From assembly GCF_058153355.1 (NCBI RefSeq), contig NZ_CM177019.1: DNA of 64,000 bases, one strand, 5' to 3'. Positions 3,929-63,760 of the stretch are shown one piece after another; positions within the stretch are counted from its first letter, which is position 1, and each line of letters opens with the position of its first letter. Both the position numbers and the translations under genes were made by a program. The notes under the pieces were generated by a model. It was not told the DNA's origin and did not search any database. It saw only the letters and a list, made by a program, of their open reading frames with translations.

Positions 3929-5212
<1,284 letters not shown>

Positions 5213-5515: not shown

Positions 5516-5728
5516 AGGTTACTCCTTTTATCATTGCCCGTTATGGGTCGATATCCGGAGATTACGCGATGAGAACGGCGGTTGTTATTCTCCGCAATCC
5601 TAATCTCTAAGTTACCGCATTTATTGAGAATTTCTCCTTTTTTCCTGTCGTTTTTCTCCATATTTTCTTCATAAAAAAGCCGGGCTGTATAAAAGCAAAC
5701 CCGGCCTGATTGAGATAATGAATAGATG

Positions 5729-7015
5729 TTACTGATGATTCATCATCAATTTACGCAACGCAGCAAAATCGGCGGGCAGATTATGCGAAAGCAAGGGTAA
5801 ATCAGCACGTTCTGCCAGCTCTTTTGGCAGATCCAATGTTTCACCGAGAATCGCTTCCACGCTCTCTTTAAATTTCGCCGGATGCGCGGTGCCGAGGAAC
5901 AAGCCATATTCGCCTGGATGCAACTGGTCACGCAGCGCACGATAAGCTACGGCAGCGTGCGGCTCCGAGGTATAGCCCAGTTCTTTTAACTCACGCATTG
6001 TCTGTTGCGTGGTTTCATCATCTACGGCTGCATAACCCAGCTCTTTCAGTTGCCAGATTTTGCGGCGGAACAACTCTTCCACACGCGGCCAGTTGTTCGG
6101 TTGACTCACGTCCATCGCATTGGATAATGTCGCCTGAGTCGCTTTAGGGGACCACTGCCCGTCGTGCAGGAAACGCGGCACGGTATCGTTCACGTTAGTG
6201 GCAGCGATAAAACGCTTCACCGGCAGGCCAAGAGATTTCGCCAGCAGGCCCGCAGTCAAATCGCCGAAGTTACCGCTCGGCACCGAGACAACCAGCTGGT
6301 TGCGCGCTTCCTGCGGCAGCTGCGCAACAGCTTCAAAGTAGTAGCAAATCTGCGCCAGCAAACGGCTGATGTTAATGGAGTTAGCAGAGTTTAGCCCCAG
6401 CGCCACTTTCAGTTCTTCATCATCAAACGCCTGCTTCACCAGCGCCTGACAGGCATCGAAATCGCCGTCGATGGCAACAGTTTCAATATTGCCGCCCAAT
6501 GTACAGAACAGTTTTTCTTGCAGTGGACTGATTTTGCCTCTTGGATAGAGGATAACCACTTTCACATTCGGTAAACCGTAGAAAGCATGAGCCACTGCCG
6601 CTCCAGTATCACCGGAGGTCGCGGTCAGAATGGTCACTGGCTTATCGCCCGCAATATGGGTCAGCATTTGTGCCATAAAGCGACCGCCGAAATCTTTAAA
6701 TGCCAGCGTTGGCCCGTGAAACAATTCCAGACAACCGACATCGCTTTCTACATTGGCGACCGGAGCCGGGAAGGCAAACGCCGCGCGCACGCGCTCTTCC
6801 AGTATTTCCTGCGGGATCTCATCACCAATAAACGCCGAGAGGATCTTCGCACTGCGGGTGACAAAATCCAGTTTCAGCATCTCATCAATTTCAGTCAGGC
6901 TGAATTCCGGCAGGTCGTGCGGGAAAAACAGCCCCTGATTTTTGCCCAACCCCTGGGTTACGGCTTGCGCAAAGCTGACCTGCTCATTGTGATCTTTCAG
7001 ATTGTAGAGTTTCAT
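5729..7015 (-). CDS. thrC: Threonine synthase
   Basis: 428-aa ORF MKLYNLKDHNEQVSFAQAV...; thr operon order. Confidence 0.97.
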   Translation of the reverse strand: MKLYNLKDHNEQVSFAQAVTQGLGKNQGLFFPHDLPEFSLTEIDEMLKLDFVTRSAKILSAFIGDEIPQEILEERVRAAFAFPAPVANVESDVGCLELFHGPTLAFKDFGGRFMAQMLTHIAGDKPVTILTATSGDTGAAVAHAFYGLPNVKVVILYPRGKISPLQEKLFCTLGGNIETVAIDGDFDACQALVKQAFDDEELKVALGLNSANSINISRLLAQICYYFEAVAQLPQEARNQLVVSVPSGNFGDLTAGLLAKSLGLPVKRFIAATNVNDTVPRFLHDGQWSPKATQATLSNAMDVSQPNNWPRVEELFRRKIWQLKELGYAAVDDETTQQTMRELKELGYTSEPHAAVAYRALRDQLHPGEYGLFLGTAHPAKFKESVEAILGETLDLPKELAERADLPLLSHNLPADFAALRKLMMNHQ

Positions 7016-7948
7016 TTAGTTTTCCAGTACTCGTGCGCCCGCCGTATCCAGCCGGCAAATATGAACAAAACCTTCCTGATTTTGCAGGTAGTTCTTACCC
7101 AACCAGTCGGCAACGCGCTGGGCGGTATCCGGCTTGTCACACAGAGCGAACAAAGTCGGGCCGGAGCCGGAGATACCGCTCGCTACCGCGCCGATTTCCG
7201 CGACCGCCTGCCGCGCCTGCCGGAAGCCTGGCAGTAACCGTTCACGGTAGGGTTCAGCGATAACATCTTTCATCAGCTTCGCGGCAAGCTCAGGCTGACG
7301 GGAATAGCAGGCGTGAATGAAGCCTGCCAGATGTCGCCCGTGCGCAATGCAATCCTGGCGGCGATACTGCGCCGGTAAAATCGCCCTGGCTTCTGCCGTC
7401 GAGACTTTAATCCCCGGATATGCCAGCACCCACAGCCACTCATCAAACCCAGGCACTTGCTGGCTGATGATGTCGTTTTCTTCGATCATCAACTGCATAC
7501 CACCAAGAAAACACGGTGCCACGTTGTCGTAATGAATGCTGCCGGAGATACGCCCTTCCAGCTCGCCCATCAAAGCCAGCAAACGGGTGTCATTAAGCGG
7601 CTTGCCGCAATGTTCATTCATCGCCATCAGCGCCGCCACCACCGAACAAGCGCTGGATCCTAAACCCGAACCGATCGGCATATTCTTTTCCAGCGTCATT
7701 GCCACTGGAATTTGCTTGCCCAGCTCCTGGCAAAAACGCTCCCAGCACTGATAAACGATATTTTCCCTTGGTTCTGACGGCAGCTTATCGGCAAAGCGTC
7801 CGAGATTGTTGAGACTGAATGTCTCTGCCGCCTCAACCGTTACTACATCTCCGAGCAATGCACCATCAACAGGTGTCACCGCCGCCCCGAGCACATCAAA
7901 CCCGACGCTCATATTGGCACTGGAAGCCGGGGCATAAACTTTAACCAT
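7016..7948 (-). CDS. thrB: Homoserine kinase
   Basis: 310-aa [27 protein letters not shown]... Confidence 0.97.
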
Positions 7949-7949
7949 G

Positions 7950-10412
7950 TCAGACTCCTAACTTCCATGAGAGGGTACGTAGCAGATCGGCAAAGACACC
8001 AGCAGCTGTAACGTCATTGCCCGCGCCATATCCGCGCAGAACCAACGGCAGCGGCTGATAATAGTGGCTATAGAAGGCCAGGGCGTTTTCGCCATTTTTC
8101 ACTTTGAACAGCGGATCATTGCCATCCACTTCGGCAATCTTCACGCGGCAGATGCCATCTTCATCAATATTGCCAACATAGCGCAAAACTTTGCCCTCAT
8201 CACGAGCCTTCGCCACGCGTGCGGCAAAGAGATCGTCGAGCTGTGACAGATTCGCCATAAAAGCTGCAACATCACCCTCTGCGTTAAACTCTGCGGGCAG
8301 CACAGGTTCAATTTCAATATCCGCCAGTTCCAGTTCACGTCCCGTTTCACGGGCGAGAATCAATAGCTTACGCGCCACATCCATACCAGAAAGATCATCT
8401 CGCGGGTCCGGTTCGGTATAACCCATTTCCCGCGCCAGCGTGGTCGCCTCAGAGAAACTCATGCCTTCGTCTAACTTGCCGAAGATATAAGAAAGCGAAC
8501 CGGAAAGAATGCCGGAGAACTTCATTAATTCATCACCTGCGTTGAGCAGATTTTGCAGGTTCTCAATAACCGGTAATCCAGCCCCAACGTTAGTGTCATA
8601 GAGGAATTTACGCCGCGATTTTTCCGCCGCATAACGCAACTGATGGTAGTAATCCATCGACGAGGTGTTGGCCTTTTTGTTTGGCGTAACCACGTGGAAA
8701 CCTTCGCGCAGGAAGTCAGCATACTGATCCGCCACCGCCTGGCTGGAGGTACAGTCGACAATCACCGGATTCAGCAAATGATATTCTTTCACCAGGCGAA
8801 TTAAGCGCCCGAGGTTAAACGGCTCTTTGGCTTGCGCCAGTTCTTCCTGCCAGTTCTCCAGATTAAGGCCATGCACATTGGTGAGCAGAGCCTTTGAGTT
8901 GGCAACGCCGCAGACACGTAAGTCGATATGTTTATTCTTCAGCCAGCTTTGCTGGCGCTTCAGTTGCTCCAGCAGCGCACCGCCAACACCACCGACGCCA
9001 ATCACAAACACTTCGATAACCTGATCGGTATTGAACAGCATCTGGTGGGTAACGCGCACGCCAGTGGTCGCATCATCGTTATTTACCACGACAGAGATTG
9101 AGCGTTCAGAAGATCCCTGAGCAATGGCGACAATGTTGATATTGGCGCGGGCCAGCGCGGCAAAGAATTTCGCCGAGATCCCACGCAAGGTGCGCATACC
9201 ATCACCTACCACCGAGATAATGGCTAGCCGTTCCGTCACCGCCAGCGGCTCCAGCAAGCCTTCCTTCAGTTCAAGATAGAACTCTTCCTGCATCGCCCGT
9301 TCAGCTCGCACACAGTCGCTTTGTGGAACGCAGAAACTGATACTGTATTCAGAAGACGATTGCGTAATCAGCACCACTGAAATGCGAGCGCGTGACATTG
9401 CCGCAAAGACGCGCGCCGCCATGCCGACCATCCCTTTCATTCCCGGACCGGATACGCTAAACATTGCCATGTTATTCAGATTGGAAATGCCCTTGACTGG
9501 TAATTCGTCTTCATCACGGCTGGCGCCAATGAGCGTACCTGGTGCTTGAGGATTTCCGGTGTTTTTAATCAGGCAAGGGATCTGGAACTGAGCGATGGGG
9601 GTAATGGTGCGGGGGTGAAGAACTTTAGCGCCGAAGTAGGAAAGCTCCATCGCTTCCTGATAGGACATCGACTTCAACAACCTCGCATCGGGCACCTGAC
9701 GCGGGTCGCAGGTATAGACCCCGTCAACGTCCGTCCAAATCTCGCAACAATCGGCGCGTAAACAGGCAGCCAGTACCGCGGCGGAGTAGTCGGAACCGTT
9801 ACGTCCAAGCACCACCAGTTCGCCTTTTTCATTACCCGCAGTGAAACCTGCCATCAGCACCATGTGGTCAGCCGGAATGCGGCTTGCCGCAATACGGCGG
9901 GTGGACTCAGCAATATCGACGGTAGATTCGAGGTAATGACCGACTGCCAGCAGTTTTTCGACCGGATCGATTACGGTAACGTTGTGACCACGCGCTTCTA
10001 AAACTCCGGCCATAATGGCGATCGACATTTTCTCGCCACGGCAAATCAGTGCCGCGTTGATGCTATCCGGGCACTGCCCTAACAAACTAATACCATGCAG
10101 GACATGTTTAATTTGGGCAAATTCCTGGTCGACGAAAGTTTTCAGCTGCGCCAGCGGGAATCCCGGCTGGGCGGCGGCGAGTCCCGTCAGAAGTTCGGCA
10201 AAAATACGTTCGGCATCGCTGATATTGGGTAAAGCATCCTGGCCGCTAATCGTTTTTTCAATCATCGCCACCAGGTGGTTGGTGATTTTGGCGGGGGCAG
10301 AGAGGACGGTGGCCACCTGCCCCTGCCTAGCATTGCTTTCCAGAATATCGGCAACCCGCAGAAAACGTTCTGCATTTGCCACTGATGTACCGCCGAACTT
10401 CAACACTCGCAT
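7950..10412 (-). CDS. thrA: Bifunctional aspartokinase I / homoserine dehydrogenase I
   Basis: ORF 7950..10454; true start taken as [18 protein letters not shown] (820 aa). Confidence 0.95.
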
Positions 10413-10437
10413 GGTTGTTACCTCGTTACCTTTGGTC

Positions 10438-10476
10438 GAAAAAAAAGCCCGCACTGTCAGGTGCGGGCTTTTTTCT
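10438..10476 (-). terminator. thr operon attenuator (rho-independent terminator hairpin)
   Basis: GC-rich hairpin gcccgcacctgacagtgcgggc followed by U-run on the minus strand, between thrL and thrA. Confidence 0.8.
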
Positions 10477-10492
10477 GTGTTTCCTGTACGCG

Positions 10493-10561
<69 letters not shown>

Positions 10562-10771
10562 TGTTGTGTACTCTGTAATTTTTATCTGTCTGTGCGCTAT
10601 GCCTATATTGGTTAAAGTATTTAGTGACCTAAGTCAATAAAATTTTAATTTACTCACGGCAGGTAACCAGTTCAGAAGCTGCTGTCAGAGACTCTTTTTT
10701 TAATCCACACAGAGACATATTGCCCGTTGCAGTCAGAATGAAAAGCTGAAAAATACTTACTAAGGCGTTTT

Positions 10772-11458
10772 TTATTTGGTGATATTTTTTTCAATATCAT
10801 GCAGCAAACGATGCAACATTGCCGTGTCTCGTTGCTCTAAAAGCCCCAGCCGTTGTTGTAACCAGTCGACCAGTTTTGTGTCATCTGCCACTGCCAGGGT
10901 CGTCAGCAATGACATGGCTCGTTCGCGTAAAGCTTGCAGTTGATGTTGGTCTGCCGTTGTGTCACTTTTGGCCGGTTGTTGTATTAATGTTGCTAATTGA
11001 TAGCAATAAACCATCACCGCCTGTCCCAGATTCAGCGAAGGATAATCTGCCACCATCGGCACACCAGTAAGAACGTCAGCCAAGGCTAACTCTTCGTTAG
11101 TCAGCCCGGAATCTTCGCGACCAAACACCAGCGCTGCATGGCTCATCCACGAGGATTTTTCCTCTAACAGCGGCACCAGTTCCACCGGCGTGGCGTAGTA
11201 ATGATATTTCGCCCGACTGCGTGCAGTGGTGGCGACAGTGAAGTCGACATCGTGTAACGATTCAGCCAGAGTTGGGAAAACTTTAATATTATCAATAATA
11301 TCACCAGATCCATGTGCGACCCAGCGGGTAGCTGGCTCCAGGTGTGCCTGACTATCGACAATTCGCAGCTCGCTAAACCCCATCGTTTTCATTGCCCGCG
11401 CCGCTGCCCCAATATTTTCTGCTCTGGCGGGTGCGACCAGAATAATCGTTATACGCAT
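10772..11458 (-). CDS. yjtD: SpoU-family tRNA/rRNA methyltransferase YjtD (LasT)
   Basis: 228-aa ORF MRITIILVAPARAENIGAAARAMKTMGF...; synteny. Confidence 0.9.
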   Translation of the reverse strand: MRITIILVAPARAENIGAAARAMKTMGFSELRIVDSQAHLEPATRWVAHGSGDIIDNIKVFPTLAESLHDVDFTVATTARSRAKYHYYATPVELVPLLEEKSSWMSHAALVFGREDSGLTNEELALADVLTGVPMVADYPSLNLGQAVMVYCYQLATLIQQPAKSDTTADQHQLQALRERAMSLLTTLAVADDTKLVDWLQQRLGLLEQRDTAMLHRLLHDIEKNITK

Positions 11459-11857
11459 ATTGCCACTCTTCTTGACCTAATAACCGCGCACAGGGTGATC
11501 ATTGTCAACTTATTACGCGGATCGAATTTACAAACTCTTAACGTAAGTCGCAGAAAAAGCCCTTCACTTAGCTTAAAAAAGACTAAACTATTTCATGACT
11601 GTACTAATGGTTGAATTGTTAAAAAATGCTACATATCCTTCTGTTTACTTAGGATAATTTTATAAAAAATAAATCTCGACAATTGGATTCACCACGTTTA
11701 TTAGTTGTATGATGCAACTAGTTGGATTATTAAAATAATGTGACGAAAGCTAGCATTTAGATACGATGATTTCATCAAACTGTTAACGTGCTACAATTGA
11801 ACTTGATATATGTCAACGAAGCGTAGTTTTATTGGGTGTCCGGCCCCTCTTAGCCTG

Positions 11858-11998
11858 TTATGTTGCTGTTAAAATGGTTAGGATGACAGCCGTTTTTGAC
11901 ACTGTCGGGTCCTGAGGGAAAGTACCCACGACCAAGCTAATGATGTTGTTGACGTTGATGGAAAGTGCATCAAGAACGCAATTACGTACTTTAGTCAT
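11858..11998 (-). CDS. yjjY: Small protein YjjY
   Basis: 46-codon ORF MTKVRNCVLDALSINVNNIISLVVGTFPQDPTVSKTAVILTILTAT (below the ORF-track cutoff), located between yjtD and arcA as in K-12. Confidence 0.6.
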   Translation of the reverse strand: MTKVRNCVLDALSINVNNIISLVVGTFPQDPTVSKTAVILTILTAT

Positions 11999-12093
11999 GT
12001 TACGCCGATCATGTTAATTTGCAGCATGCATCAGGCAGGTCAGGGACTTTTGTACTTCCTGTTTCGATTTAGTTGGCAATTTAGGTAGCAAAC

Positions 12094-12810
12094 ATGCAGA
12101 CCCCGCACATTCTTATCGTTGAAGACGAGTTGGTAACACGCAACACGTTGAAAAGTATTTTCGAAGCGGAAGGCTATGATGTTTTCGAAGCGACAGATGG
12201 CGCGGAAATGCATCAGATCCTCTCTGAATATGACATCAACCTGGTGATCATGGATATCAATCTGCCGGGTAAGAACGGTCTTCTGTTAGCGCGTGAACTG
12301 CGCGAGCAGGCGAATGTTGCGTTGATGTTCCTGACTGGCCGTGACAACGAAGTCGATAAAATTCTCGGCCTCGAAATCGGTGCAGATGATTACATCACCA
12401 AACCGTTCAACCCGCGTGAACTGACTATTCGTGCACGCAACCTGCTGTCTCGTACCATGAATCTGGGTACTGTCAGCGAAGAACGTCGTAGCGTTGAAAG
12501 CTACAAGTTCAATGGTTGGGAACTGGACATCAACAGCCGTTCGCTGATCGGCCCTGATGGCGAGCAGTACAAGCTGCCGCGCAGCGAGTTCCGCGCCATG
12601 CTTCACTTCTGTGAAAACCCAGGCAAAATTCAGTCCCGTGCTGAACTGCTGAAGAAAATGACCGGCCGTGAGCTGAAACCGCACGACCGTACTGTAGACG
12701 TGACGATCCGCCGTATTCGTAAACATTTCGAATCTACGCCGGATACGCCGGAAATCATCGCCACCATTCACGGTGAAGGTTATCGCTTCTGCGGTGATCT
12801 GGAAGATTAA
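12094..12810 (+). CDS. arcA: Aerobic respiration control response regulator ArcA
   Basis: 238-aa [36 protein letters not shown]... Confidence 0.97.
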
Positions 12811-39770: not shown

Positions 39771-41357
39771 TTAATGCTCGCGAGTCTGGTGGAACTGAAC
39801 GTCCGGATAACGTTCCTGCGCCAGGCGCAGGTTGACCATGCTGGTAGCGATGTAAGCGAGGTTATCGCCGCCATCAAGCGCCAGTTGGCTTTCGTTCTTA
39901 CGCTTGAACTCTTCGAATTTCTTCGCGTCCGCACATTCTACCCAGCGTGCAGTGGCAACGTTGACTGACTCATACACTGCTTCAACGTTGTATTCGCTCT
40001 TCAGGCGCGCTACCACCACATCAAACTGCAGCACACCAACCGCACCAACGATCAGGTCGTTGTTGGAGATCGGACGGAACACCTGCACCGCGCCCTCTTC
40101 GGAAAGCTGTACCAGCCCTTTGAGCAGCTGTTTTTGCTTCAGCGGATCTTTCAGGCGGATACGACGGAACAGTTCCGGCGCAAAGTTCGGAATACCGGTG
40201 AACTTCATCATCTCCCCCTGGGTAAAGGTGTCGCCGATCTGAATAGTGCCGTGGTTGTGCAGACCAAGGATGTCGCCCGGATACGCTTCCTCAACATGCG
40301 AACGGTCGCCCGCCATAAAGGTCAGCGCGTCGGAGATCACCACATCTTTCGCGGTGCGCACCTGGCGCAGCTTCATGCCTTTTTCATATTTACCGGATAC
40401 CACGCGCATAAACGCCACGCGGTCGCGGTGTTTCGGGTCCATGTTGGCCTGAATTTTAAATACGAAGCCGGTAAATTTATCTTCGCTCGCCTCTACGGTA
40501 CGGGTATCAGTCTGACGCGGCATCGGCGCAGGTGCCCACTCTACCAGGCCATCCAGCATATGATCGACGCCGAAGTTACCCAGCGCAGTACCAAAGAACA
40601 CTGGAGTAATTTCGCCCGCAAGGAACAATTCTTTGTCGAACTCGTTAGACGCGCCTTTCACCAGTTCCAGTTCGTCACGCAGCTGCTGTGCCAGATCTTC
40701 ACCAACCGCAGCATCGAGATCCGGGTTATTCAGCCCTTTAACAATACGGACTTCCTGAATGGTGTGACCTTTACCGCTCTGATAGAGATAGGTTTCGTCT
40801 TTATAAAGGTGGTAAACGCCTTTAAACAGCTTGCCGCAGCCAATCGGCCAGGTGATCGGCGCACAGCCGATTTTCAGCTCGTTCTCAACTTCATCGAGCA
40901 GCTCCATCGGGTCGCGGATATCACGGTCAAGTTTGTTCATAAAGGTGAGGATCGGCGTGTCGCGCAGACGGGTAACTTCCATCAGCTTGCGGGTACGATC
41001 TTCAACACCTTTTGCGGCGTCGATAACCATCAGGCAGCAGTCCACCGCCGTCAGAGTACGATAGGTATCTTCCGAGAAGTCTTCGTGCCCCGGGGTGTCG
41101 AGCAGGTTAACCAGGCAGTCGTGATACGGAAACTGCATCACAGACGTAGTAATGGAGATCCCACGCTGCTTTTCCATCTCCATCCAGTCCGACTTAGCGT
41201 GCTGGTTGGAACCACGGCCTTTTACTGTACCGGCAGTCTGAATGGCCTGTCCGAACAGCAGCACCTTCTCGGTGATGGTCGTTTTACCGGCGTCCGGGTG
41301 AGAAATAATTGCAAAGGTTCTTCTTTTCGCTACCTCTGCGGCCAAAAGGCTTGTCAT
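39771..41357 (-). CDS. prfC: Peptide chain release factor 3 (N-terminal codons differ from the K-12 form as recalled)
   Basis: ORF 39771..41384; start taken at [27 protein letters not shown] (528 aa), GTPase motifs. Confidence 0.9.
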
Positions 41358-41543
41358 AATTGTTGTCTCTTTGATTATGTACAATCATATGTACAAAGAA
41401 AAATTCATGCCGCTGATTGTACATTTTGGAGGTATCAGAGCATAGCAGAACATGATCAGTAGGTGTATTTGTAGCCAAAGAACATTTGTATATGCAGCAA
41501 TCTTTGCTCTATTGACACTGTTTATTCATACAGTTAAAAATAA

Positions 41544-41563
41544 TACTGTATAAAAACGCAGTA
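41544..41563 (+). promoter_or_regulatory. Candidate LexA (SOS) box upstream of dinI-like gene
   Basis: tactgtataaaaacgcagta fits CTG-N10-CAG, 14 bp upstream of the gagagggg RBS and the ATG. Confidence 0.6.
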
Positions 41564-41577
41564 GAGAGGGGTTTTTT

Positions 41578-41826
41578 ATGCGTATTGAGATCTGCATAGC
41601 CAAAGAGAAAATGACTAAAATGCCAAACGGTGCTGTGGATGCGTTAAAGGAAGAATTAACTCGGCGCATCAGTAAGCGTTATGACGATGTAGAAGTGATC
41701 GTAAAAGCCACCAGCAATGATGGGCTTTCTGTTACACGCACCGCAGATAAGGATTCTGCAAAAACATTTGTTCAGGAGACTCTGAAAGATACCTGGGAGT
41801 CTGCTGACGAGTGGTTTGTTCACTAA
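41578..41826 (+). CDS. DinI-family protein (prophage-encoded)
   Basis: 82-aa [52 protein letters not shown]... Confidence 0.85.
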
Positions 41827-41856
41827 TTAACACGTAAAATCTGTAACGGCTGGAAA

Positions 41857-42063
41857 TCATTCAATACTCGCACTATCGAAAGTTCGCCAGCCAACCGCAG
41901 CACGTTCTTGCATACGACGTGTCTGCGGTTTTATATAATCCCAGCCGGTCCAGTTTCCAGACAACCAGCGTGTCACCTGCCGATAATGTCCTGTCAACGC
42001 ATTACGTTGTAGATCGATTTTCTGGTCATTTGTTGATACGCAAACATAGCCAATAAGCATGGT
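41857..42063 (-). pseudogene. Remnant of a Gin/Pin/Hin-family serine DNA invertase (internal deletion and frameshift)
   Basis: First 22 codons MLIGYVCVSTNDQKIDLQRNAL match invertase N-terminus; downstream DNA encodes DTLVVWKLDRLG only in another frame; too little space for an intact invertase of about 190 aa. Confidence 0.6.
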
Positions 42064-58615: not shown

Positions 58616-59846
58616 TTTTTGGGGGCTTAAAATCTCCTGCCGGGTTAGCAGCATTCACGCTTACCAGCATCTCATCCAGCCCTTCAACCGGATTCATATC
58701 CTCGAATGCGCGGGCCTCATTACGGCTCATCCATCCATCGGTAATAGCGAAGTGATAGAATTGCGCGCGCTCCTGCGGAGTTCCGCGTAAAAGCCCCGTC
58801 AGATTGAACCTGACGTAATACCCGGCGGCTAACTCAGCGCGGGTAAACAAGCGACGGTTAAGCTCCTGCTCCCAGTTCGTCACCCACGGCATCATCGTGT
58901 AGCGGACAAACTGAATCGCCTGCGCAGAAATATTGGAGAAGGTGGCTTTTTCGAGGTCATTAATCATGTGCGCAGGAATATTGAAAATACCGGCAATCAT
59001 TGAACGGTTCAGTTTCATCATGTCAATGATCTGAGCGTCAACTGGCGACACAGTCAGTGCCTTGTAATCCAGATCGGCTGGCAACAGCATGGTTTTGTTT
59101 TCCTGGCTGCGTAACGCCTGCGATGCCTTCTGCCACTGATCTTTAAGCCAGCCCCAGCTGTCCTTATTGAGTCCGCTTTTAACGGATACTATCCCCGCCG
59201 GACGGGCATTACCGCTGAAGAAGCTTTCTGTGTATTTCTGACCGCTCATCCCCATGCCTATTGTTTCGGCATGTTGCATAATCGGACTCAGCCCCATCTT
59301 CTGATTATTACCCAGCGCACGAATGTGGATCATATCGTCGGGGCTGATCGCAAACGCCCCATATTCGTTGTACAAACCGTAGGTGTATCGGCCACCAGTA
59401 TTCATCAGCGTCGTTTCCCACGGCATACAGCAATCCAGGGATATGACTTCACCGCGACGATTACGTTTCACCCAGGTATACCCATTCCCCCAGCCAAGGA
59501 TGTGACGTTGCTTCAGTTCGCGCCATTTGTAACTGGTTTGCCAGGTATTGGGCTCATCATGAACCAGATAAAACGCCGGATGATCGCGTGCGGGCTCAAC
59601 CTTCCCATTGTGCCTGCGCATAACATGCAACGGCATCTGGGCAAGGCTGGAAGACAGGACATAGATACAGGAATACACCGCAGCCAGTTTCATCGCAGTT
59701 TCAGGACTGACATAAACGTCTGCCCGGAACAGCCCATCAGTATCAACGGCATCCCCGGTTATCGGGGTGGAAGGATTCTCCAGTGCTTTACTTCTGAACA
59801 GAGCATCAAGCAGCACGCGTCCCCCTTCTGGCCATAGCCAGTGCAC
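58590..59846 (-). CDS. Portal protein (HK97-family)
   Basis: 418-aa ORF between terminase and protease. Confidence 0.85.
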   Translation of the reverse strand: MHWLWPEGGRVLLDALFRSKALENPSTPITGDAVDTDGLFRADVYVSPETAMKLAAVYSCIYVLSSSLAQMPLHVMRRHNGKVEPARDHPAFYLVHDEPNTWQTSYKWRELKQRHILGWGNGYTWVKRNRRGEVISLDCCMPWETTLMNTGGRYTYGLYNEYGAFAISPDDMIHIRALGNNQKMGLSPIMQHAETIGMGMSGQKYTESFFSGNARPAGIVSVKSGLNKDSWGWLKDQWQKASQALRSQENKTMLLPADLDYKALTVSPVDAQIIDMMKLNRSMIAGIFNIPAHMINDLEKATFSNISAQAIQFVRYTMMPWVTNWEQELNRRLFTRAELAAGYYVRFNLTGLLRGTPQERAQFYHFAITDGWMSRNEARAFEDMNPVEGLDEMLVSVNAANPAGDFKPPKNDEGKTNE

Positions 59847-59963
59847 CCACCAGCAGTAAACCGCCGGACAGCATCAGAGCCGGAGCCATACCAAACTGCA
59901 GGTAAAACCCGCACGCAAGCAGGCCAAAACCAGCCAGCCCGATAACATCAGCAATTAGTGATT

Positions 59964-61697
59964 TCATAGAATTAAGAGAGCATCGTCCGGATCAAGAGAT
60001 GAGAGGAAATCGTCGGGTTCTTTGAGCATTGCCCGACCGATCGCCATAATCAGTGCAACCGCACCATCGATTTTGTTTTCCGCCTGCTCCTTGACAGGCT
60101 TCACCACATCATCGTTACCCGGAATAGTTTTGCCGACCACGTTGCCGATACACCAGGTCATGATGGGATTGCCGTCATGATGAAAGCGCCCCGATTCAAT
60201 CGCCGCTTCCAGCTCTTTCATCGGATCGGACATGTTGGTGTAGTTCTGAATGATGGTGATGGGGTTCAGGTCTTCATCAGCAAGGTCATGCGACAGCCCG
60301 GTCGCCCCGAAGGGGTCGATGGGTGACTCACTGACCGGGCTGATTTTGTTCGCCGCTTTGGCCTCCTCGAGGATGTAGCGATAATCCACCTCCGCACCAG
60401 CGGTAACAGTCAGAACGCCCATTTCCACCCATTTCTGAAAGCGTTCGGCTGTCCGGCGATCTTCATTTTTCTCGACGCTGTACACCGTGTCATACGGTAC
60501 CCAGAAACGCGGAGCCACACTGTAGTAATGCGTTTTACCGTCAATCTCGCGGGTATAAAGTCGCGCCATGCTGTTCATATCCAGCTTACGCGCCAGGTCA
60601 AAGGCCAGAATGCACGGCTGCCCCTCGAACTGCTCAAGGGACAGTGATTTATCCTCGCAGCTCTGCCAGCTCACCAGGTTGAAATACGCCGAACGCGCCG
60701 ACACCCAGATATTGAGGTGTTTTGTTTTAAAGACGTTTGCCAGACGGGCGTTATTTTTCGCACGCTGCTGCTGACTTAACAAAAATTCGCGATAAACCGA
60801 CACGCCAATATTCGGGTTAGCTTTTTCCAGCACCTGCGGGTCGGTCCAGTCATCGCCTTCGTCAACGGTATAGATGATCCCGAACAATTCATCGTTGGGT
60901 ACCGACCCGTTGAGCATCTCGATAACTTCCCGCCGCTTGTCGTAGCACGGCCCCTCAATGTTGTACCCGGCGGTGGTGATGGCCCACATCAGTGGCTGAC
61001 GTCGCGCCCCCATCCCGGTAAGCATCGTGGTATAAAGCGCATCGGTGGCGTGCTCGTGATATTCATCCACGACGGCACAGTGGGGTGATGAACCATCACC
61101 GGGGTTACCGATCAGCGGTTCAAACCGCGCGCCATCCTCCGGACGGTTCATGTTTGAGGCGTTAACCTCAATCCCGAACGCTTCCGTCAGCATGGGTGTG
61201 CGTTTACACATCAGTCGAGCCGGGCGAAAGACTTCCCACGCCTGTTTCTCTGTCGTGGCACCGGAATACACTTCCGCGCCAAACTCGTTATCACAGGCAA
61301 AACAATACAGGGCAACACCGGCAGAGATTGCCGATTTGCCGTTCTTACGGGGGATTTCGGTATACACCTCCCTGAAGCGGCGCAGCCGGGAGCCTTTATT
61401 GACCCAGCCAAACGCACAGCAGATCACAAAGAGCTGCCACGGTTCCAGCGTGATGGGCATCCTCTTGAATGCCCACTCCCCCTTGGTGTGTGGCAACAGC
61501 TGAATAAATTTCGCGGCCCGTTCAGCCAGGTCCTTGTCGAAGCGGTAACGAAACGACTTACTTTTTTCCGCCATCAGGTCATCAAGATGGCGCTGGCAGG
61601 CCTGAATCACAAACTGGCAGGCCACAATCTTTCCGCGCACGACATCACGGGCATACTGATTGGCAGCATTTACGTTGGGGTAAGATTTCCGGCTCAT
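59964..61697 (-). CDS. Terminase large subunit
   Basis: 577-aa ORF with ATPase and nuclease regions. Confidence 0.9.
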
Positions 61698-62197
61698 GAT
61701 TCGATGATTTTCAGAAACGGGTTAGTGGCTTTCTTCTGCCCCGCCAGGCCAATCAGACGCTGGCGGCTGCTGGGGTCGAGTCCGAGCATTGCCCCCGTGC
61801 TGCTCATCTCGGACTCCTGTTCTTTTTTGGCTGTCAGCTCCGGATTTTTGACCCTGCCGCCCATTGCGCCGGTGATGGTGTTGCCCTGTATGGCAATATT
61901 TTTCACGGCACGTCGCCAGAACTCATAGGCCACGCACCACCGCTCAAGCACCGCGAGGTCAGTCACGCACAGCAGGCCCTGACCGCAGAGTTCTTTGGTT
62001 GTCAGTTGCCACATGATCGTGGCGAGAGTGAGATCTTCTTCAGCGAACCACTCCGGTGGCTCAACACCTTTGATGGGCGTAAAAACAGGTTCATCTTTGT
62101 TCAGGGCTCGCTTGCCGGGGTTTCCGGCCAGCGCCTTGCGCGCCGTTGGCTTGGGGCGACGCCCGGAACGCCCCGCCGTTCCAGCCATATGCGGCAC
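61694..62197 (-). CDS. Terminase small subunit (P27-family-like)
   Basis: 167-aa ORF overlapping the terminase large start. Confidence 0.8.
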
Positions 62198-62313: not shown

Positions 62314-62664
62314 TCACTTAAGTCGTTCACGGGCCGTCTTCGCCTTATGACACGGCCAGCACAGACTCTGCAGATTACAGTCGGCATCAGTGCCGCCATG
62401 CGCTTTAGGGATGATGTGGTCAACGGTTTTCGCCTCACGCACCACACCAGCACGCAGACATAACTGACACAGGCCTTTGTCACGCTTCAGGACACGCGCG
62501 CGGATACTGTCCCACTTCGAACCATAGCCGCGCTGATGACGGGACTGACCTGGCTTGTATTGCTTCCAGCCTTCACTTTTGTGGCTTTCGCAATAGCCTG
62601 ACGGGTCAGTGGTTGTAGAGCTGCAGCCGCGAATACGGCAGGCCTTTGGGATTCGTGGTGGCAT
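62314..62664 (-). CDS. HNH endonuclease (packaging-associated)
   Basis: 116-aa ORF with Cys pairs (C..C ... C..C) and His-Asn-His signature, immediately upstream of terminase. Confidence 0.85.
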   Translation of the reverse strand: MPPRIPKACRIRGCSSTTTDPSGYCESHKSEGWKQYKPGQSRHQRGYGSKWDSIRARVLKRDKGLCQLCLRAGVVREAKTVDHIIPKAHGGTDADCNLQSLCWPCHKAKTARERLK

Positions 62665-62689
62665 TTATCAATCTCCACTCAATTCCTTT

Positions 62690-63214
62690 CTACTTCGTCA
62701 TCATTTTACTAAGTTCCTGAGGAGTCAATTCCCATGTAATAAACCGAGAAGACTCCAAAACATCATCTTCTCCGAGCAAGTATTTACGTATATTCTTCAT
62801 GAAGACCCTATAATCTGGGGCATCATTCTTGTGCGACAGAATTTTAGACAATTCCGTTGCTAGATCAGCTGGTAACCATAAAAAAGCCTCATTTGTTAAT
62901 TGTCTTAATCTTTTTCTGTCATAGGGATTTGTCATCCATTCAGACATAAGCTCGGCAATTAATGCCGACTTCATTCTTATCTCATGTTGCCTTTTTTGCT
63001 TATCCAGAATAACAGTGTTTGCTGTTTTTATTGTTTCAAGCATAACATCGTATTCATGCTTGACTGCATTCTGCACAGTGCTTTGTAGCCAAGTTCTCCC
63101 AATAAAAAACATTAAAGGGAGTATTACAACCCAAGCGATTACATTTGCTATCCAACCAGCGTCCATATCTATCCTCATGAAAATAAAAATGATTAACACA
63201 CAAGCTGTTAGCAT
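62690..63214 (-). CDS. Hypothetical membrane-anchored protein (prophage moron candidate)
   Basis: 174-aa ORF with two N-terminal hydrophobic helices, AT-rich coding sequence, wedged between lysis cassette and HNH/terminase. Confidence 0.5.
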   Translation of the reverse strand: MLTACVLIIFIFMRIDMDAGWIANVIAWVVILPLMFFIGRTWLQSTVQNAVKHEYDVMLETIKTANTVILDKQKRQHEIRMKSALIAELMSEWMTNPYDRKRLRQLTNEAFLWLPADLATELSKILSHKNDAPDYRVFMKNIRKYLLGEDDVLESSRFITWELTPQELSKMMTK

Positions 63215-63225
63215 ATAACATTATT

Positions 63226-63483
63226 TCAATGATTACTTCTTTTGCTTTCTATTTTGCGGATTGCAACTTTATCTTGATTACATTGATTTAATGCTGATAA
63301 CAAATTCACATTCAAATCAAGACTTGCACCATACGTCAGTGGGTTGGGTATAAACGGTACAGGAGTATCAGAAGTCAAGCTGACTGGTAGTGGTGTCTTC
63401 GGAATGCTCACGTAAACTGTTCGCGTACTTCCGCAACCTGTCAGCAGCGGCAGCAGGTACAGGACGGGCAGCACAATCATCAT
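63226..63483 (-). CDS. o-spanin (Rz1-like outer-membrane lipoprotein)
   Basis: +1-frame ORF overlapping the end of Rz; MMIVLPVLYLLPLLTGC lipobox, proline-rich mature region. Confidence 0.6.
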   Translation of the reverse strand: MMIVLPVLYLLPLLTGCGSTRTVYVSIPKTPLPVSLTSDTPVPFIPNPLTYGASLDLNVNLLSALNQCNQDKVAIRKIESKRSNH

Positions 63484-63760
63484 CCGCAACAGCCACTTTA
63501 ATATCTTCCTGGGTTCTCTGTGACTCCAGTGCGATCTGCTGTTTTGCATGCTGGTTAGCCTCCAGAACTGTATTGACGATTTGCATTGATTGCAGGACGT
63601 TATTGGTAATGGCAGTTGCTGATTCAGCATTTTGTACAGCCTCATCAGCACGTTTCTTTTCGTACTGATATTTGCTGTAGTAGTAGTTGGCTGACCAGAT
63701 GAAAGAACCAATGGCAGTAACGAAAAAAGCAGCGATAATCAGCTTATAACTCAACTTCAT
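63368..63760 (-). CDS. i-spanin (Rz-like)
   Basis: 130-aa ORF with N-terminal TM helix and coiled-coil region, immediately downstream of endolysin. Confidence 0.7.
   Translation of the reverse strand: MKLSYKLIIAAFFVTAIGSFIWSANYYYSKYQYEKKRADEAVQNAESATAITNNVLQSMQIVNTVLEANQHAKQQIALESQRTQEDIKVAVADDDCAARPVPAAAADRLRKYANSLREHSEDTTTSQLDF

Follow-up and report, generated by a model that had tools for sequence, protein, structure and literature searches.

Several small membrane proteins of about 150–190 amino acids (aa), among them SieB of P22 and lambda, gp15 of HK97 and Imm of T4, serve phage exclusion or abortive infection, and the known SieB-type proteins are produced either by the lysogen or at an early stage of infection. 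Phage lambda also carries bor downstream of Rz, and the ‘ant moron’ of P22 includes sieA. A moron is defined as an inserted accessory unit of deviant composition that usually possesses its own promoter and terminator (PMC2629481). Integron cassettes can likewise encode phage defence, as described in a preprint (bioRxiv 10.1101/2024.07.02.601719). Here, we analyse a 64,000-nucleotide (nt) stretch of Escherichia coli DNA (contig NZ_CM177019.1 of assembly GCF_058153355.1; hereafter, the window), in which a prophage carries an AT-rich gene for a small membrane-anchored protein on the minus strand between its lysis cassette and its packaging genes. This gene is dispensable cargo in a hypervariable slot at the lysis/packaging boundary, and its product belongs to an undescribed protein family in a well-known kind of niche.

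The variability of the slot is immediately apparent from sibling prophages. The approximately 9 kb of DNA that spans head through lysis genes shares 96–98% identity with prophages of 206 complete E. coli genomes, and every one of these matches breaks off at the slot. Searches of 5,426 complete E. coli genomes detected the cargo gene neither by megablast nor by word-11 blastn; a single draft E. coli assembly and a single IMG/VR contig were found to carry it, at 99% identity. The slot of strain E1 is empty, with 26 nt separating the Rz1 stop codon from the ATG of the HNH endonuclease gene, that of PEC422 holds one 83-aa gene on the opposite strand, and that of 21EVA holds two genes on the opposite strand. 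Among a spread of sampled E. coli loci that possess both this HNH gene and this Rz gene, the spans imply no fewer than nine sizes for the slot, approximately 41, 310, 410, 500, 570, 630, 680, 750, 940 and 1175 nt. A three-way alignment of the window, E1 and PEC422 placed the left junction of the extra DNA exactly at the HNH ATG and the right junction inside Rz/Rz1, with high identity back at about 63410. The 3′ ends of Rz1 and Rz (63226–63409) are AT-rich and only about 79% identical to the E. coli siblings, vs at least 95% on both sides, which places the recombination junction of the incoming cargo gene inside the overlapping spanin genes. The gene came in on a 745-nt AT-rich mosaic segment (62665–63409, minus strand, GC fraction 0.366) that comprises the cargo gene, a 59-nt gap and the Rz1/Rz 3′ ends. 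The Rz1–HNH junction is thereby documented as a cargo hot spot of a common type of E. coli prophage.

Composition sets the gene apart from its surroundings. Its GC fraction is 0.377 (0.371 at third codon positions), vs 0.564 for the HNH gene, 0.591 and 0.544 for the small and large terminase genes (TerS and TerL), 0.518 for the portal gene and 0.461 for Rz; only 0.9% of 477-nt segments of the window reach such a low GC fraction (z = −3.2). The same holds for the relatives described below, with the family gene AT-rich vs its flanks in 24 of 25 loci and at 0.40–0.42 GC in a Pseudomonas genome of 0.65 GC. Presence or absence at the same position among close relatives and a deviant nucleotide composition, two hallmarks of a moron, are both found at this locus. 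A sequence-only reading of the window that preceded this analysis had described the gene as markedly more AT-rich than the neighbouring structural genes, and had proposed to compare its GC content with that of the flanks and to look for a different gene in this slot of related prophages; the description is confirmed, the deviation from the flanks is strong, and the related slots are either empty or occupied by unrelated genes. We also observed that the family gene stays at 0.36–0.46 GC in hosts of 0.33–0.65 GC despite saturated synonymous sites. This absence of drift toward host GC could stem from ongoing transfer or from selection in favour of AT-richness, for instance by xenogeneic silencing.

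The longest open reading frame (ORF) at this position in the ORF list spans 62690–63214 on the minus strand and encodes 174 aa. We prefer a shorter gene model; the actual gene is likely to be 62690–63166 (minus strand), encoding a 158-aa product that starts MDAGWIANVI... at Met17 of the longest frame and ends at a TAG stop codon (62692–62690). Two lines of evidence favour this start: i) in an alignment, the first residue of 34 of 37 homologous clusters falls on Met17, that of one further cluster lying three residues downstream, and ii) a Shine-Dalgarno motif, GAGGA (63172–63176, minus strand), lies 5 nt upstream of the Met17 ATG (63166–63164), the minus-strand sequence around the start region reading ...TTTTCATGAGGATAGATATGGAC. 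Motifs of the GGAG/AGGAG type precede the equivalent start in most homologous loci. The Met1 ATG (63214) follows the Rz1 TGA by 11 nt, and the intervening sequence, AATAATGTTAT, holds no Shine-Dalgarno motif. The 16-codon 5′ extension of the longest frame (MLTACVLIIFIFMRID; 63167–63214, minus strand) is probably untranslated, and with it the hydrophobic stretch MLTACVLIIFIFM that furnished an apparent second helix. The two hydrophobic N-terminal helices assigned by the sequence-only reading are an artefact of the longest ORF, and the two-helix, 174-aa gene model was rejected in light of the homologue starts and the Shine-Dalgarno motif. Independent of any role of the protein, the corrected gene model counts 158 aa in place of 174, and one helix in place of two.

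Whether the 174-aa product is real, or an extra isoform arising from a dual start of the holin/antiholin kind, is a question of gene model that is compatible with any functional hypothesis. The frame is open from 63214, the extension is strongly hydrophobic, and GenBank lists a 99%-identical E. coli protein at 174 aa. Only two of the 37 clusters possess an N-terminal extension, however, namely that 99%-identical E. coli protein (P0001), with the same extension, and P0020, with an unrelated one; with the extension missing or unrelated in all other homologues, and with a strong GAGGA ahead of Met17 and none ahead of Met1, we regard such an isoform as very unlikely. Comparison with homologues from Erwinia, Hafnia, Serratia and Pantoea gave proportions of nonsynonymous differences (pN) of 0.14–0.33, far below the proportions of synonymous differences (pS) of 0.75–0.89, at which synonymous sites are saturated, and the frame is therefore under purifying selection. 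The stretch 62690–63166 is a real, selected gene, beyond a chance ORF. The gene is rare in E. coli and annotated nowhere, as might be expected of a decaying or functionless ORF carried passively on the mosaic segment; given an intact frame under strong purifying selection, invariant residues kept over 351 clusters and a confidently modelled fold, such an origin is extremely improbable.

The 158-aa product possesses a single N-terminal transmembrane anchor at residues 5–24, approximately (63095–63154, minus strand; maximum 19-residue hydropathy of 2.21), a helix that is hydrophobic throughout the family alignment but variable in sequence. Among 145 family members whose hydrophobic segment is clear, lysine and arginine residues number on average 3.2 over the 15 residues that follow the helix, vs 0.37 ahead of it, and 141 of the 145 are biased in this direction. 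The N-terminal tail has a median length of 6 residues, its second residue being Asp or Glu in 67 of 124 members. A short uncharged or acidic tail, one helix and positive charges on its C-terminal side are the attributes of type III single-pass membrane proteins. By the positive-inside rule, the charge bias after the helix predicts that the N terminus lies outside and that the conserved C-terminal domain is cytoplasmic (N-out/C-in).

An AlphaFold2 model built from a 36-sequence alignment (mean predicted local distance difference test score of 83.7) contains one continuous helix, residues 3–79, that unites the membrane segment with a stalk. Four shorter helices, residues 85–97, 100–110, 119–131 and 149–157, form a small bundle, the first three of them packing against the end of the long helix; the soluble helical part amounts to about 130 residues. 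The most conserved block, residues 87–110 (LRQLTNEAFLWLPADLATELSKIL; 62837–62908, minus strand), falls in this presumably cytoplasmic helical domain and is nearly invariant in the family alignments as LRQLTNEAFLWLPxDLAxELSKxLS, and residues W77, W97, P99 and R127 are invariant, or nearly so, across the wide family. No catalytic-type residue constellation is conserved in the family alignments, which argues for a binding rather than an enzymatic role, and the helical bundle most likely works by partner binding. Taken together, a structural model emerges in which a short acidic N-terminal tail would lie outside the cell, a variable helix would serve as an anchor only, and a long stalk would carry a conserved cytoplasmic bundle.

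An exhaustive hidden Markov model (HMM) search of 1.84 billion representatives returned 351 clusters, counted at 50% identity, at E ≤ 1e-3, of which 191 were at E ≤ 1e-10; a profile search of genome contigs with a narrower alignment returned six loci. The source names of all members read ‘hypothetical protein’, and the conserved domain spans Proteobacteria and Bacteroidota. Long-form members of 254–286 aa possess an extra C-terminal region of about 110 residues, for which no Pfam match was obtained (P0110, P0119, P0138, P0148, P0159 and P0173; loci L035 and L049). This is a broad, unnamed family of mobile single-gene modules, and its 351 clusters are hereby defined for database curation.

The window protein has no significant match in Pfam, PHROGs, NCBIfam or PADLOC, in keeping with its earlier description as a soluble domain without a recognisable motif. 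In Pfam, it returned no domain at E ≤ 0.001, and 93 diverse family members gave nothing consistent, SieB not being among the families matched by any of them. Annotation matches to a rhamnosidase (E 0.011), to RNR-beta (E 0.0019, 17.6 bits vs a cut-off of 310) and to an exonuclease PHROG (E 0.047) were rejected as chance-level. The best PHROG matches, at E 0.047 and 0.13, were both non-lysis, and the lysis PHROGs and the holin and spanin Pfam families gave no match. A tblastn search of 50,697 phage records found no homologue, a sequence-profile search of the PDB returned nothing at E ≤ 10, and a fold search of the BFVD viral models returned nothing at E ≤ 0.001. Against AFDB50, Foldseek returned only uncharacterised proteins, themselves members of the family (from Providencia, Serratia, many Vibrionaceae, Pseudomonas and Bacteroidota), with one entry annotated DUF4760 (E 1.5e-4); the DUF4760 HMM (PF15956) does not match the window protein even at E ≤ 10 and was absent from the 93-member scan. 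No papers were found for the sequence motifs of the family, and DUF4760 was found in the literature only in an island gene list.

Besides these searches, we compared the genomic settings of the family. Three of them recur: the lysis–terminase slot of many enterobacterial prophages that are otherwise unrelated, the vicinity of attC-like repeats in a Vibrio cassette array, and defence islands of Vibrio, Salegentibacter and an integrative element. Fifteen distinct prophage loci, annotated via Pfam, PHROG or RefSeq, carry the family gene after spanin or lysis genes and before the terminase, co-oriented with them: besides the window, these are loci of Erwinia (L006), Hafnia (L007), Pantoea (L009, L014 and L040), Yersinia (L012) and Serratia (L016), and seven viral or metagenomic contigs (L020, L022, L027, L029, L031, L033 and L052). 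Their holins belong to Phage_holin_3_1, 3_7, 2_1 and 8, their endolysins to the GH19-like phrog_181 and the T4-type phrog_7, and their spanins to phrog_13, 214 and 2536; a further endolysin bears the RefSeq label GH24 or GH104 in different E. coli siblings. Terminases are of the phrog_9, phrog_38, phrog_3717, Terminase_3 and Terminase_6 types (at least four TerL types). The family gene is found with at least four holin, three endolysin and three spanin families, and also at loci without lysis genes. A dedicated lysis partner was sought among these genes and rejected, since there is no co-variation with holin, endolysin or spanin type. Other cargo may stand between the spanins and the family gene, namely Rv1289-like and Acb2/Tad1-hairpin genes in Erwinia, Rha in Yersinia, a DUF2235 gene in Pantoea JZ29 and a 258-aa uncharacterised gene in L027. 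In Erwinia billingiae (L006), the gene directly upstream of the family gene (5627–5863) is of the Acb2/Tad1-hairpin family (PF24729), and the gene downstream (6649–8106) encodes a 485-aa protein of phrog_1579 (‘glycosyltransferase’, moron category; E 1e-229). The same gene (486 aa) follows the family gene in viral contig L029 (6606–8066), and the two may constitute a recurrent cargo pair.

Transcription of the cargo gene was considered from consensus scans of the minus strand. No sigma-70-like site was detected in the 200 nt upstream, whether in the 59-nt gap or within Rz1, although a weak or non-canonical promoter could escape such a scan, and no terminator-like hairpin was detected between the cargo stop codon and the HNH gene. 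In the homologous loci, Shine-Dalgarno motifs are regular and promoter- or terminator-like motifs only irregular. With its own promoter and terminator undetected, and with gaps to its neighbours of only 59 and 25 nt, the cargo gene would share a transcript with the lysis and packaging genes, driven by the Q-dependent late promoter. The sequence-only reading had placed the gene among the morons common to this slot of lambdoid genomes; that assignment stands with respect to patchy presence and composition, and, as far as the consensus scans can tell, falls short with respect to an own promoter and terminator. A textbook moron with a transcript of its own does not emerge from these scans, and the gene is probably expressed within the late operon.

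Outside prophages, defence genes lie near the family gene, at a distance of up to about 1.5 kb, in five of the seven short-form loci that were examined. On plasmid pVEu of Vibrio europaeus (L039), the family gene directly follows the anti-phage gene Hhe, with PDC-S21 also present. The family gene stops at 6414, and a 126-nt attC-like repeat that starts at 6412 overlaps this stop codon; the repeat is the first of at least six copies spaced by 770–1311 nt. An ORF followed by attC within an array, the arrangement of an integron cassette, was found for this Vibrio europaeus homologue only. Across 5989–12253 of the same locus, we observed that each of a series of short genes is followed by a repeat, that DUF3265 mini-ORFs overlie the repeats, and that the array holds Hhe at its edge, KilA-N and PDC-S21. 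An attC upstream of Hhe, sought to see whether Hhe and the family gene share a single attC-bounded cassette, was not found. With no attC or integrase detected within 6 kb upstream of Hhe, the array resembles a cassette array that is rich in defence genes and devoid of an integrase. In Salegentibacter flavus (L047), the family gene sits among a type IIG restriction-modification gene (PADLOC E = 0), an NsnA/PD-T4-2_A-like gene (8e-66) and PDC-S11 (4e-154), each no more than about 2 kb away. The plasmid-borne locus of V. parahaemolyticus (L041) has PD-T7-5 (2e-114) at 1.5 kb upstream, on the far side of an IS110 element; in an element with ParA, ParB and an integrase (L038), the family gene begins 19 nt after a 450-aa fused Hydrolase/Hydrolase-TM gene; and on a metagenomic contig (L051), a DEDDh exonuclease ‘Effector’ gene stands ahead of it. 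In L038 (4630–6917), the family gene also overlaps the next ORF, of 160 aa, by 4 nt, and this locus may be an operon that ties the family to another defence gene. Negative or weak for defence neighbours were L044, L046 and two long-form loci; a Janthinobacterium locus has a methyltransferase-domain protein 3.6 kb away.

The defence-island and cassette neighbours of the short forms suggest a function in phage–phage or phage–host conflict, as do the tethering to the membrane and the lack of any enzymatic signature. We tentatively put the window protein forward as a candidate non-enzymatic phage-exclusion or abortive-infection protein, the best of the readings considered here, at somewhat less than even odds. 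Tethered at the inner leaflet of the cytoplasmic membrane, the protein would bind a conserved phage or host component, and a competing phage would be blocked either at or just after DNA entry, as in superinfection exclusion, or by abortion of the infection. The benefit would fall to the prophage or its lytic cycle, and the protein would not be needed for the prophage’s own lysis or packaging. That the whole family might be an undescribed, phylum-spanning, single-gene and membrane-tethered anti-phage family, moving among prophage slots, cassette arrays and defence islands and wired into the late operon in prophages, is a more doubtful proposition.

A number of observations weigh against an exclusion or abortive-infection role. 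None of the searches run detected homology to any characterised exclusion or defence protein: PADLOC-DB v2.0.0 has no family for the window protein, and ten diverse family members gave chance-level matches only in that database (E ≥ 0.0037). The other occupants of the prophage slot have no PADLOC match either, which leaves the slot without demonstrable status as a defence hot spot. The association of the short forms with defence genes is tentative, coming from too small a sample (seven loci); it leans partly on PADLOC ‘candidate’ families that are themselves defined by association, and AT-rich variable islands gather many kinds of cargo. The Pseudomonas oryzihabitans locus has RadC nearby and no PADLOC neighbour, and two long-form members are solitary among housekeeping genes (LysR, 2-hydroxyacid dehydrogenase and SHMT in one case, an ABC transporter and bacterioferritin in the other). 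Moreover, a gene transcribed only late would be silent in the quiescent lysogen, which is where classical exclusion and defence cargo acts.

The solitary long forms lend themselves to a different explanation, in which the protein would be a membrane-tethered adaptor for envelope or stress functions of the host, with a benefit of the lysogenic-conversion type. Integron cassettes and AT-rich islands hold many non-defence adaptive genes, and a domain that extends across Proteobacteria and Bacteroidota suggests a conserved cellular partner. We consider this explanation unlikely, since a promoterless site in the late operon implies little expression in the lysogen, the short forms cluster with defence rather than envelope genes, and the protein resembles no known envelope or stress family. 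The late-operon site would in turn suit an accessory of lysis or late infection, a membrane protein co-expressed with the lysis genes that would tune the phage’s own lysis in the manner of an antiholin, a releasin or a spanin regulator. The gene comes next after Rz1 in the late operon, an own promoter was not found, its relatives follow the lysis cassette in the 15 prophage loci, often directly after the spanins, and its product is membrane-anchored. Yet siblings with the same lysis and packaging genes do without it, its presence tracks no holin, endolysin or spanin family, other cargo intervenes behind the spanins in several loci, members reside in non-phage contexts, and the matches that a lysis protein might be expected to give, in the lysis PHROGs, the holin Pfam families or the phage records, did not appear; this alternative is accordingly improbable.

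More broadly, the siblings without the gene, the absence of lysis co-variation and the relatives outside phages make a role in the phage’s own lysis or packaging unlikely. The profile-HMM and structure searches that the sequence-only reading had recommended returned no lysis or packaging family, and the gene does not behave as a conserved accessory of these processes, present in all relatives with matching composition, which that reading had named as its own refutation. The remaining alternative, a counter-defence factor that would aid the phage against host immunity, draws on the Erwinia billingiae slot, where the family gene directly follows the Acb2/Tad1-hairpin-family gene, and on the mixture of defence and anti-defence genes in phage accessory slots. 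The association comes from that single locus, however; such a factor would be hard to reconcile with members in bacterial defence islands, cassette arrays and chromosomal sites, late expression would be too late for most counter-defence, and no family member is present in the 50,697 phage records. We judge a counter-defence role to be highly improbable.

Should the exclusion or abortive-infection reading be true, the late-wired prophage copies would guard their own lytic cycle or neighbouring kin, and not the resting lysogen, and the wiring into the late operon would inform the question of the timing and the beneficiary of prophage cargo. The protein would then exemplify a compact defence or exclusion module of about 150 aa, non-enzymatic and composed of an anchor, a stalk and a helical bundle, and its gene would be one cargo gene that circulates among prophages, cassette arrays and defence islands.

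The gene order around the cargo gene on the minus strand is the end of the endolysin gene, Rz, Rz1, the cargo gene, HNH, TerS, TerL, portal, protease and major capsid. Rz (63368–63760, minus strand) matches phrog_214 (E 1.9e-46), and embedded in it is Rz1, a LysC-type outer-membrane spanin with the lipobox LLTGC and the last gene of the lysis cassette (63226–63483, minus strand; phrog_456, E 5.5e-24), for which a PF23793 LysC match was obtained in the near-identical locus L001. The HNH endonuclease gene (62314–62664, minus strand; phrog_144, E 1.8e-44) is the first of the packaging module, its ATG lying 25 nt beyond the cargo stop codon with its own GGAG ahead, and is followed by a P27-type TerS gene (61694–62197, minus strand; phrog_83). 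These PHROG matches corroborate the initial placement of the open frame between the lysis cassette and the HNH/terminase genes. No Rfam RNA family was detected in the cargo region, and no tRNA in the window. Between TerL and portal lies a strongly hydrophobic 53-aa ORF (59806–59967, minus strand), whose 162-nt equivalent is annotated as a hypothetical protein in siblings, for instance at 6307–6468 of L003. The window begins in yaaJ-tal-yaaA, within which an IS110-family (IS621-like) transposase gene lies at 3978–4958 by the annotation of matching E. coli genomes, and the E. coli prophage abuts osmY/prfC. AT-rich patches elsewhere in the window are found at 11276–12128 (GC 0.356) and 41276–41878 (GC 0.382), the latter near the tail-fibre end of the prophage beside osmY/prfC.

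Among the closest known systems we count DUF4760 (PF15956) and the periplasmic four-helix-bundle sensor domains of the QseE and Tar/Tsr types, in addition to those introduced at the outset. Bor and SieA have no sequence relationship to the cargo protein. Morons of lambdoid late operons usually possess an own promoter and terminator, whereas these were undetected for the cargo gene, which is co-oriented with and tightly packed in the late operon; alike are the insertion in a conserved late operon, the patchy presence among siblings, the AT-richness and the dispensability for morphogenesis and lysis. Single-gene anti-phage cassettes of integrons and defence islands differ in that the family has no PADLOC v2 match and is tied to them by association alone, the window copy residing in a prophage; they resemble the family in that members are found at an attC-like repeat with Hhe and PDC-S21, or beside defence genes. 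SieB, HK97 gp15 and T4 Imm have no detectable homology to the cargo protein, and the cargo gene, unlike theirs, is apparently transcribed late; these proteins share with it the size class, the N-terminal anchor followed by a helical soluble part, the carriage by prophages and the dispensability.

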